Positions 52,166 through 52,516 of a stretch of DNA of 64,000 bases are shown here, one piece after another (within the stretch, counting starts at the first letter, position 1; the number at the start of each line of letters is the position of its first letter). The position numbers were made by a program, and so were the translations under genes. The DNA lies in the NCBI GenBank assembly GCA_963845185.1, contig CAWJRG010000005.1:480001-544000 (forward strand), written 5' to 3'. Under the pieces are notes generated by a model. It had not been told where the DNA came from. It saw nothing but the letters and a program-made list of their open reading frames with translations, and did no database searches. Origin of the DNA: an uncultured bacterium (GTDB taxonomy: Bacteria; Oederibacteriota; PGYV01; CAWJRG01).

Positions 52166-52516
52166 TTACTGAAGCGCGTCTTCGTCACGCTCTCCTGTAC
52201 GTATTCTTATTATGCCGGTAATTTCGCTTATAAATATTTTACCATCGCCTATCCTGCCCGTCCTTATTGACGAGATTATTGCATCTATTATTCCCTGAAT
52301 ATCGTCTTCTTTGGCGACTATTTCGATCCTTATTTTTGGCAAAAATTCTATAGATAGTTCCTTTACATTTTTGCTTTTTACAGCGTTTAACTTGCTTTTT
52401 TGAAACCCATACCCTTCCACATTTGATATCGTTACTCCGCAAACCCCCGTTTCAATGAGCTTTTGTTTCAGTGCTTCAAATTTTGCAGGTTGTATTATTG
52501 CTGTTATCTTTTTCAT
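52166..52516 (-). CDS. P-II family signal transducer with divergent T-loop
   Basis: MKKITAII.P, FLPK, TGRIGDGKIF, RIRTGE. Confidence 0.95.
   Translation of the reverse strand: MKKITAIIQPAKFEALKQKLIETGVCGVTISNVEGYGFQKSKLNAVKSKNVKELSIEFLPKIRIEIVAKEDDIQGIIDAIISSIRTGRIGDGKIFISEITGIIRIRTGERDEDALQ

Follow-up and report, generated by a model that had tools for sequence, protein, structure and literature searches.

Introduction

Few signal transducers are as widespread as the P-II proteins, and with each new target the range of processes known to be under their control has grown. The route by which metabolic state enters the chemotaxis (Che) pathway, for its part, has been worked out only for a small number of model species. 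We describe here a P-II gene that lies inside a chemotaxis gene cluster of an uncultured bacterium of the candidate phylum Oederibacteriota. It occupies positions 52166..52516 (minus strand) of a stretch of 64,000 nucleotides (nt) that we call the window (assembly GCA_963845185.1, contig CAWJRG010000005.1, positions 480,001 to 544,000 of the forward strand). As judged from sequence comparison, it is a real and conserved feature that a true P-II protein, its T-loop base remodelled and its dedicated neighbour made of tetratricopeptide repeats (TPR), has been recruited to chemotaxis.

With canonical GlnB and GlnK the protein shares its family, its fold and the nucleotide-binding residues of the B-loop and the C-terminus. 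The expected logic is also the same: an effector binds and determines the state of the T-loop, which in turn contacts the target. It departs from them in its gene context, a chemotaxis operon and not the vicinity of amtB or glnA, and in the T-loop base, where the clade of che-linked P-II proteins defined below has replaced Arg38, Gly41 and Tyr46 and mostly carries Arg in place of Lys58. The window protein itself has a T-loop three residues longer than the canonical one and devoid of Tyr51, and it misses the cut-offs of the GlnB/GlnK equivalog models. From GlnD-modified enterobacterial P-II it differs both by the lack of Tyr51 and by the lack of the modifying enzyme, there being no match to GlnD (0 matches to PF08335) in a source genome that is 99.4% complete. 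P-II paralogs encoded beside the machinery they belong to are known: GlnK with amtB is one case, and amtB–P-II pairs occur in this very genome; NifI1 and NifI2 are encoded within nif operons. Unlike in GlnK and NifI, the machinery is here chemosensory, and what the neighbouring gene encodes is neither a transporter nor an enzyme but a TPR scaffold.

The core of the cluster, for its part, resembles what we take to be the Bacillus/Thermotoga-type CheC/CheD systems (presumably the class called F1-like), and consists of the same CheA, CheW, CheY, CheB, CheR, CheC and CheD. It differs from them by an insert between CheR and the receiver CheY1 that encodes two TPR proteins, named TPR392 and TPR729 after their lengths, an extended CheW-like protein and P-II. 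To our knowledge, no such insert belongs to the systems described for that type.

The nearest precedent is GlnZ of Azospirillum brasilense. According to PMC7646526, GlnZ was found to pull down a diguanylate cyclase as well as a cyclase/phosphodiesterase, and a mutant in glnZ shows changed amounts of cyclic di-GMP (c-di-GMP) and a changed aerotaxis. Common to both cases would be an influence of P-II on motility behaviour, and the window cluster contains a c-di-GMP-related gene of the HD-GYP type. GlnZ is different in that it belongs to the canonical nitrogen P-II proteins, can be uridylylated, has many targets, affects taxis indirectly through c-di-GMP levels and is not encoded in a che operon. 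Reuse of the P-II fold for other signalling is seen in the c-di-AMP receptor PstA/DarA (PMC4316997, PMC4475381). The window protein, a true PF00543 member with an intact ATP/ADP site, differs from such proteins, which make up distinct P-II-like families with other ligand sites. A study of CheA1 and CheA4 and nitrogen metabolism (PMC8561660) was considered as a precedent and set aside: P-II terms occur in its reference list only. Full-text literature searches, within the text retrieved by them, found no P-II gene in a chemosensory cluster and no interaction between a P-II and a Che protein.

A genuine P-II protein

The original prediction, made from the letters of the window alone, had placed a P-II protein at 52166..52516. 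We confirm this assignment: the minus strand carries there an open reading frame (ORF) of 116 residues with an ATG start, whose product matches Pfam PF00543 (P-II) over the entire profile (1-102/102) with 87.9 bits, for a cut-off of 25. A sequence search of solved structures returned 41 matches, all of them GlnB/GlnK P-II proteins (best E 1.8e-28; top matches 2eg1, 1ul3 and 1hwu), at 38-44% identity; none of these 41 is a PstA-type chain.

We modelled the monomer with AlphaFold2 from a 48-row alignment of the clade (pLDDT 89.4, pTM 0.78). The model has the topology E-H-E-(loop)-E-H-E, i.e. the double β-α-β ferredoxin-like fold of P-II, with a short helix within the T-loop (residues 40-47, pLDDT ~83). 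In Foldseek all its top matches are P-II proteins, with probability 1.0 and a TM score of ~0.75; the best is 2xul/2xzw from Synechococcus elongatus. Taken together, the product of the ORF is a genuine member of the P-II family and presumably works as a trimeric sensor of adenine nucleotides.

It is nevertheless no ordinary GlnB or GlnK by score: against the NCBIfam equivalogs NF008111 and NF007946 (GlnB/GlnK) it reaches 104.1 and 99, under the curated cut-offs of 202 and 181, respectively. In a word-based protein search, the 116-residue form recurs in two other proteins only (P0002 and P0003, 82% and 74% identical). The next tier holds 112-residue proteins of ~50-63% identity, several of them source-labelled Candidatus Goldbacteria, and canonical P-II proteins rank below it, at 50% identity or less.

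Linkage to chemotaxis genes across the phylum

The P-II gene is part of a run of 16 same-strand genes, with an HD-GYP-type gene at its head and an FtsA/PilM-like gene at its end. Within it, Pfam recognises a complete set of CheA, CheW, CheY, CheB, CheR, CheC and CheD on one strand, at 44784-57399. Immediately upstream of P-II is the gene of TPR729 (52513..54702, minus strand), a 729-residue all-TPR protein that matches only TPR families in Pfam. Its stop overlaps the P-II start, as had been predicted: the reverse complement of 52513-52516 reads ATGA. The cheY gene expected to follow is there as well, 35 nt downstream; it encodes the receiver CheY1 (51765..52130, minus strand; Pfam Response_reg). 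Equally correct was the statement that no amtB or glnA is nearby, since both amtB genes and a glutamine-synthetase ORF are on another contig, C10.

We searched all 99 species genomes of the phylum set with a profile of the clade and, at the level of the order, ~8 kb on each side of P-II with the 16 cluster proteins of the window. A P-II copy of 48-63% identity is carried by 17 of 40 related genomes, all from the window's order. All 17 loci, together with one from another order (G036), show the arrangement TPR729-P-II-CheY1 (18/18), and the full cluster is syntenic in these 18 loci wherever the contig is long enough. The same arrangement is found in 27/27 further high scorers (at least 138 bits; families f17, f22 and f23) and in five of the eight best lower-tier profile matches (families f18 and f15); the other three of these eight are second P-II copies, from genomes in which a che-linked copy is also present. 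In family f11, P-II lies between a CheW-like gene and CheY in 3/3 loci. Wherever the contig extends far enough, CheY1 is the next gene downstream of P-II.

Seen from its neighbour, the linkage is just as strict: TPR729 is single-copy in 60 of the 99 genomes, with P-II directly downstream in 60/60. In a further genome (G094) TPR729 is cut by the contig start and the che-linked P-II is present; in G013 it is P-II that is cut, by two contig ends. Together, the 60 genomes, G094 and the three of f11 put che-linked P-II in at least 64 of the 99 phylum genomes, a lower bound because several families are outside the examined set. Among the P-II loci listed as controls (80 genome contigs and 80 metagenome contigs, most of them with canonical P-II), 156/160 do not carry the cluster and 4/160 do; the latter are three duplicates of known loci and one new locus (L219). 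Orthologs unlinked to che genes would have spoken against the original prediction; every ortholog with an examined context is che-linked. The view of the gene as a paralog dedicated to the che cluster is thus borne out by conserved synteny, with the nitrogen roles left to two amtB-linked copies.

In L165-L169 (f18, f15) the cluster extends from CheR to CheB, with the CheA gene at another place in the genome. In G034, the cluster P-II and the best CheA match are ~250 kb apart on one contig.

A separate clade with a remodelled T-loop base

A quick maximum-likelihood tree (112 columns) was computed from 51 distinct che-linked sequences together with 91 controls. In it, the che-linked set forms one side of a branch against all 91 controls, with a Shimodaira–Hasegawa-like approximate likelihood ratio (SH-aLRT) support of 95. 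After dropping the three f11 rows and two very divergent rows from the window's own genome, the support is 91.6. The sister group is made up of three second P-II copies of family f17 that are not che-linked (support 85), and the source labels of clade members include Candidatus Goldbacteria and candidate division FCPU426. The phylogeny and neighbourhood survey proposed with the original prediction agree, then, in finding one clade, with an arrangement in at least 64 related genomes that goes beyond chance. Its origin is best explained, from the tree and the synteny, by duplication of an ordinary P-II within the candidate phylum, after which the copy would have been fixed in the chemotaxis operon.

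The window protein keeps the equivalents of Q39 and K58, the B-loop T-G-R-I-G-D-G-K-I-F and the motif R-I-R-T-G-E, as originally read and as alignments with structures and relatives bear out. HMMER alignments with solved relatives also support the three-residue insertion in the T-loop and the loss of Tyr51: there is no Tyr in the window T-loop, and Leu54 (window numbering) aligns with canonical residue 51. At the base of the loop, the window protein has Phe38 and Ser41.

Neither the insertion nor the loss of Tyr51 holds as a hallmark of che-linked P-II. Among the 51 distinct che-linked sequences, 30 retain Tyr51 (85/91 in the controls), all of them from outside the window's order, and the insertion is confined to three proteins, that of the window and its two closest relatives; both are therefore local features and do not define the clade. 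Its real signatures are the replacements at the T-loop base. Arg38 and Gly41 constitute the conserved T-loop base of the P-II family. Arg38 occurs in 0/51 che-linked sequences, which have Tyr, Phe, Ile, Val or Leu instead (controls 86/91), and Gly41 in 2/51 (controls 91/91). Tyr46 is absent from all (0/51, for 86/91 in the controls), and Lys58 is left in 14/51 (controls 91/91), with Arg in 35 and Gln in 2. Gln39 is kept in 41/51, compared with 87/91. The ATP/ADP site, in turn, is intact throughout the clade: G87 is present in 50/51, and D88, G89, K90, R101, R103, T104 and E106 each in 51/51.

From the missing Tyr51 it had been concluded that the protein is not modified by GlnD. This argument carries no weight: the genome has no GlnD and its amtB-linked GlnKs likewise lack Tyr51, so that the escape from GlnD is not special to the che-linked copy.

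The protein had also been predicted to still sense ATP, ADP and 2-oxoglutarate (2-OG), a claim of which one part stands better than the other. According to PMC6908673, 2-OG is coordinated mainly by Lys58 and Gln39, and the variants K58N and K58M lose 2-OG binding with ATP still bound. Combined with the residue counts of the clade, these roles make it likely that ATP/ADP sensing is retained, on the strength of the intact nucleotide site, and render 2-OG sensing doubtful: with Gly41 replaced in 49/51 sequences, Arg38 in 51/51 and Lys58 in 37/51, it is unlikely for most of the clade. The window's own P-II, with both Gln39 and Lys58 in place, may or may not sense 2-OG.

As a measure of constraint we took the mean pairwise identity of the T-loop (residues 37-55) and compared it with that of the protein body. 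The T-loop is the better conserved part in f17 (0.85 vs 0.77) and in f18/f15 (0.75 vs 0.63), as it is in canonical controls (0.77 vs 0.63). In the window's order the relation is reversed (0.46 vs 0.62). Between che lineages, T-loop identity is only 0.23-0.28, for a body at 0.45-0.48. The T-loops are lineage-specific and strongly constrained in most lineages; in the window's order they are diversifying or relaxed.

Coupling to TPR729 and natural variants

TPR729 orthologs measure 722-740 residues in 44/47 cases. The distance between the TPR729 stop and the P-II start is an overlap or at most 20 nt in 38/47 loci, with an outright overlap in 13.

Several genomes lack the pair, or one of its members. 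G017 keeps the rest of the cluster but has neither TPR729 nor P-II, and its CheW-like gene and CheY1 are 148 nt apart; both genes are present in two genomes of its genus. In family f6 (G005 and G012) the cluster is split exactly at the position of TPR729 and P-II: one long contig carries CheR, TPR392 and the CheW-like gene, and a different contig the genes from CheY1 to the FtsA-like one. In these two genomes, which are 83-84% complete, neither TPR729 nor P-II was found.

Family f11 is the converse case. TPR729 is missing in 3/3 loci, and a P-II of 109-110 residues follows the CheW-like gene; in the two loci inspected closely, the stop of that gene and the start of P-II share 4 nt. The T-loop of these proteins is degenerate and two to three residues shorter, one of them carries G37A, and their branches in the tree are long. 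A CheW–P-II fusion in this family was considered and rejected: the long frames are high-GC artefacts, and P-II is a separate gene of 109-110 residues. Across the examined genomes, TPR729 never occurs without P-II, whereas P-II can persist without TPR729, as in f11.

A prediction of the complex between full-length TPR729 and one P-II chain scored 0.02, which carries no weight either way.

Proposed mechanism and alternatives

The best reading of the synteny is that P-II has a new target, a TPR or a Che protein, as the original prediction had supposed. We lean, by a little more than an even chance, towards an ATP/ADP-sensing accessory module that would act with TPR729 on the chemotaxis array. P-II would bind ATP or ADP in its inter-subunit clefts, where the residues are conserved. 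The conformation of the T-loop would be set by the nucleotide state, as is established for the family, and the T-loop face would then bind or release TPR729, a step suggested by strict co-occurrence, translational coupling and joint loss. TPR729, together with the CheW-like adaptor, TPR392 and CheR, would attach to the receptor–CheA array, and the kinase output or the adaptation would be tuned as an outcome.

In this way, energy or metabolic state would gain an accessory cytoplasmic entry into the only Che pathway of the organism: there is a single H-kinase_dim match genome-wide, the CheA of the cluster, which is the sole CheA. FliM (C9:279178-279750) and FlhA (C9:284795-286765) lie together on another contig; with both present, a flagellar motor is available as output, and the Che pathway probably drives it. 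The arrangement suggests that the energy state of the cell may feed directly into swimming decisions. In a bolder form, which we put forward only tentatively, P-II and TPR729 would constitute a new cytoplasmic chemotaxis input, P-II reading the ATP/ADP ratio, or a ligand other than 2-OG suited to its remodelled T-loop base, and gating the receptor–kinase array by way of the TPR scaffold and the CheW-like adaptor. If that were true, energy charge would bias swimming without a dedicated receptor, a P-II-based energy taxis fixed phylum-wide.

Several points weigh against such a module. The P-II of f11, which does without TPR729, means that TPR729 cannot be the sole partner. At least two losses of the pair have occurred within the order (G017; f6), so that it is dispensable for the core pathway, and when neighbouring genes disappear jointly, one deletion devoid of functional meaning can be the cause. 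The support for the clade comes from quick trees on 112 columns. In the window's order, the T-loop that should make the contact is the fastest-evolving part of the protein, which speaks against a simple fixed interface in that lineage. The divergence of the T-loops between lineages fits co-evolution or relaxation as well as a fixed interface. The replaced Arg38, Gly41 and Lys58 could also alter the coupling of the nucleotide to the loop. Finally, neither Flagellin_N (PF00669) nor Flagellin_C (PF00700) has a match in the 99.4%-complete genome, which leaves the output organelle not fully certain: either the filament protein is highly divergent or unassembled, or the apparatus has no classical filament.

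The persistence of P-II in f11, and the 4-nt overlap of its start with the CheW-like stop, would be expected if P-II acted directly on CheY1, CheC1 and CheD, encoded downstream of it, or on the CheW-like adaptor, TPR729 being a later-added accessory. The constant position of CheY1 immediately downstream of P-II points the same way. We regard this as unlikely, though deserving of attention: TPR729 is never without P-II (60/60), and when G017 and f6 lose the two genes jointly, CheY1, CheC1, CheD and the CheW-like gene all stay. The f11 proteins, besides, are the most degenerate of the clade, with short T-loops and one G37A.

The low conservation of the T-loop relative to the body within the order (0.46 vs 0.62) raises another question, namely whether P-II in the window's lineage is a decaying or relaxed remnant, expressed with the operon and no longer a working sensor. 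Its Tyr51 is lost in the order, its loop carries an indel in the window's lineage, and the gene was lost twice within the order. Decay is nevertheless improbable given that the reading frame is intact in 18/18 order genomes that carry the gene, that the nucleotide-site residues are all kept, along with Gln39 and Lys58 in the window protein, and that the model is confident. The body, with an identity of 0.62 over several families, bears the mark of purifying selection.

By analogy with GlnZ, P-II could instead bind the HD-GYP phosphodiesterase-type protein and control c-di-GMP turnover, with an indirect effect on motility. The gene in question (57396..58823, minus strand; Pfam HD_5, 127 bits) encodes a membrane protein and stands at the head of the window cluster, as it does for the majority of relatives from the order, being without a match in L047 and L051. 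For A. brasilense, PMC7646526 describes both the pull-down of c-di-GMP enzymes by GlnZ and a mutant changed in c-di-GMP and aerotaxis. However, no examined cluster outside the window's order has a match to the HD-GYP gene; it is no part of the cluster in f17, f18, f15, f22, f23 and f11, six families that all have P-II, and therefore cannot be the conserved partner. We consider this route very improbable.

That the protein is an ordinary nitrogen-regulatory P-II, placed in the che operon by chance and still working on targets of the AmtB or glutamine-synthetase type, is scarcely credible: its clear homology to GlnB/GlnK and its retained Gln39 and Lys58 would agree with this, but the cluster position is conserved across the phylum, the clade is separate and has its own signature residues, canonical amtB-linked paralogs exist in the same genome, and the scores are far under the GlnB/GlnK equivalog cut-offs.

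A module of P-II and TPR729 acting on the array lends itself to experiment. A phylum-wide P-II paralog of single origin, paired with a TPR protein inside the only Che operon, makes a testable candidate link between metabolism and chemotaxis. Though the organisms are uncultured, the components are small or soluble enough for in-vitro binding and kinase assays, and nature offers the comparisons: G017 and f6 lack both genes, f11 only TPR729.

The surrounding cluster and the rest of the genome

All genes of the cluster are on the minus strand. After the HD-GYP gene comes the CheR methyltransferase (56581..57399; Pfam CheR and CheR_N), followed by TPR392 (55393..56571; TPR by Pfam), a 392-residue TPR protein that is syntenic in all lineages.

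The CheW-like protein (54731..55333) has 200 residues, of which 67-199 match Pfam CheW, preceded by an N-terminal extension of ~65 residues. In the three orthologs scanned, residues 1-65 match no Pfam family even at E ≤ 10, apart from a sub-cut-off match to DUF4388 (E ~0.025) that is the only one for this N-terminus in 2/3 orthologs. The extension contains two similar Leu-Gly-x-x-Leu...Leu-x-x-x-Leu stretches that are conserved in all lineages, f11 included. They recall what we take to be the MshEN c-di-GMP-binding motif, with no profile support: an MshEN/T2SSE_N c-di-GMP domain was looked for and rejected, having no match at E ≤ 10 in 3/3 orthologs.

Downstream of CheY1 lie the phosphatase-type protein CheC1 (51139..51762; Pfam CheC), CheD (50650..51132; Pfam CheD) and a methyl-accepting chemotaxis protein (49337..50650; Pfam MCPsignal). 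The last of these is present in the clusters of the window's order and of f11, and has no match in those of f17, f18 and f15. The cluster continues with CheW (48819..49334; Pfam CheW), a second receiver, CheY2 (48476..48841; Pfam Response_reg), and the methylesterase CheB (47417..48469; Pfam CheB_methylest and Response_reg). The kinase CheA (45461..47407) has Hpt, P2, H-kinase_dim, HATPase_c and CheW domains in Pfam, and is followed by CheC2 (44784..45404; Pfam CheC). A 710-residue FtsA/PilM-like protein (42630..44762; weak Pfam FtsA and PilM_2) closes the conserved cluster. This actin-fold protein also has a weak C-terminal TGS match, and is syntenic in the window's order and in f11.

Directly upstream of the HD-GYP gene, at 58825..60021 (minus strand), a 398-residue protein has no Pfam family; the f11 loci have ORFs of comparable length upstream of CheR. 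The flanks of the cluster encode DprA, topoisomerase I, an integrase-family recombinase, UbiA and PfkB, with no pilus motor adjoining the cluster. A scan for promoters and terminators gave weak consensus matches only, and the number of terminators, 25, is close to the 18.9 expected from shuffling. Among public sequencing runs, none was listed for positions 51700-55400 of the window.

Elsewhere in the genome there are four further P-II genes or domains, all on contig C10. Two of the genes each follow an amtB gene, and one of these pairs is downstream of an ORF with a glutamine-synthetase catalytic domain; to judge by this context, the canonical nitrogen roles are covered by the two amtB-linked genes. 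On the same contig, L006 2864-4762 (plus strand) encodes a 632-residue protein in which an amino-acid permease (AA_permease_2) carries a P-II domain at its C-terminus; the gene after it (L006 4778-5119, plus strand) is a P-II gene of its own. P-II matches also lie inside frames of 637-690 residues in G009, G017, G021, G027, G031 and G032, which suggests that the permease–P-II fusion may be widespread in the phylum.

Two further features of the window lie away from the cluster. A PilB/PilT-type ATPase (T2SSE, 439 bits) is encoded at 8768..9904 (minus strand; C5:488768-489904), ~35 kb from the cluster, and is one of eight PilB/PilT-type matches genome-wide. Between the two, a giant ORF of 2973 residues spans 28072..36993 on the minus strand.

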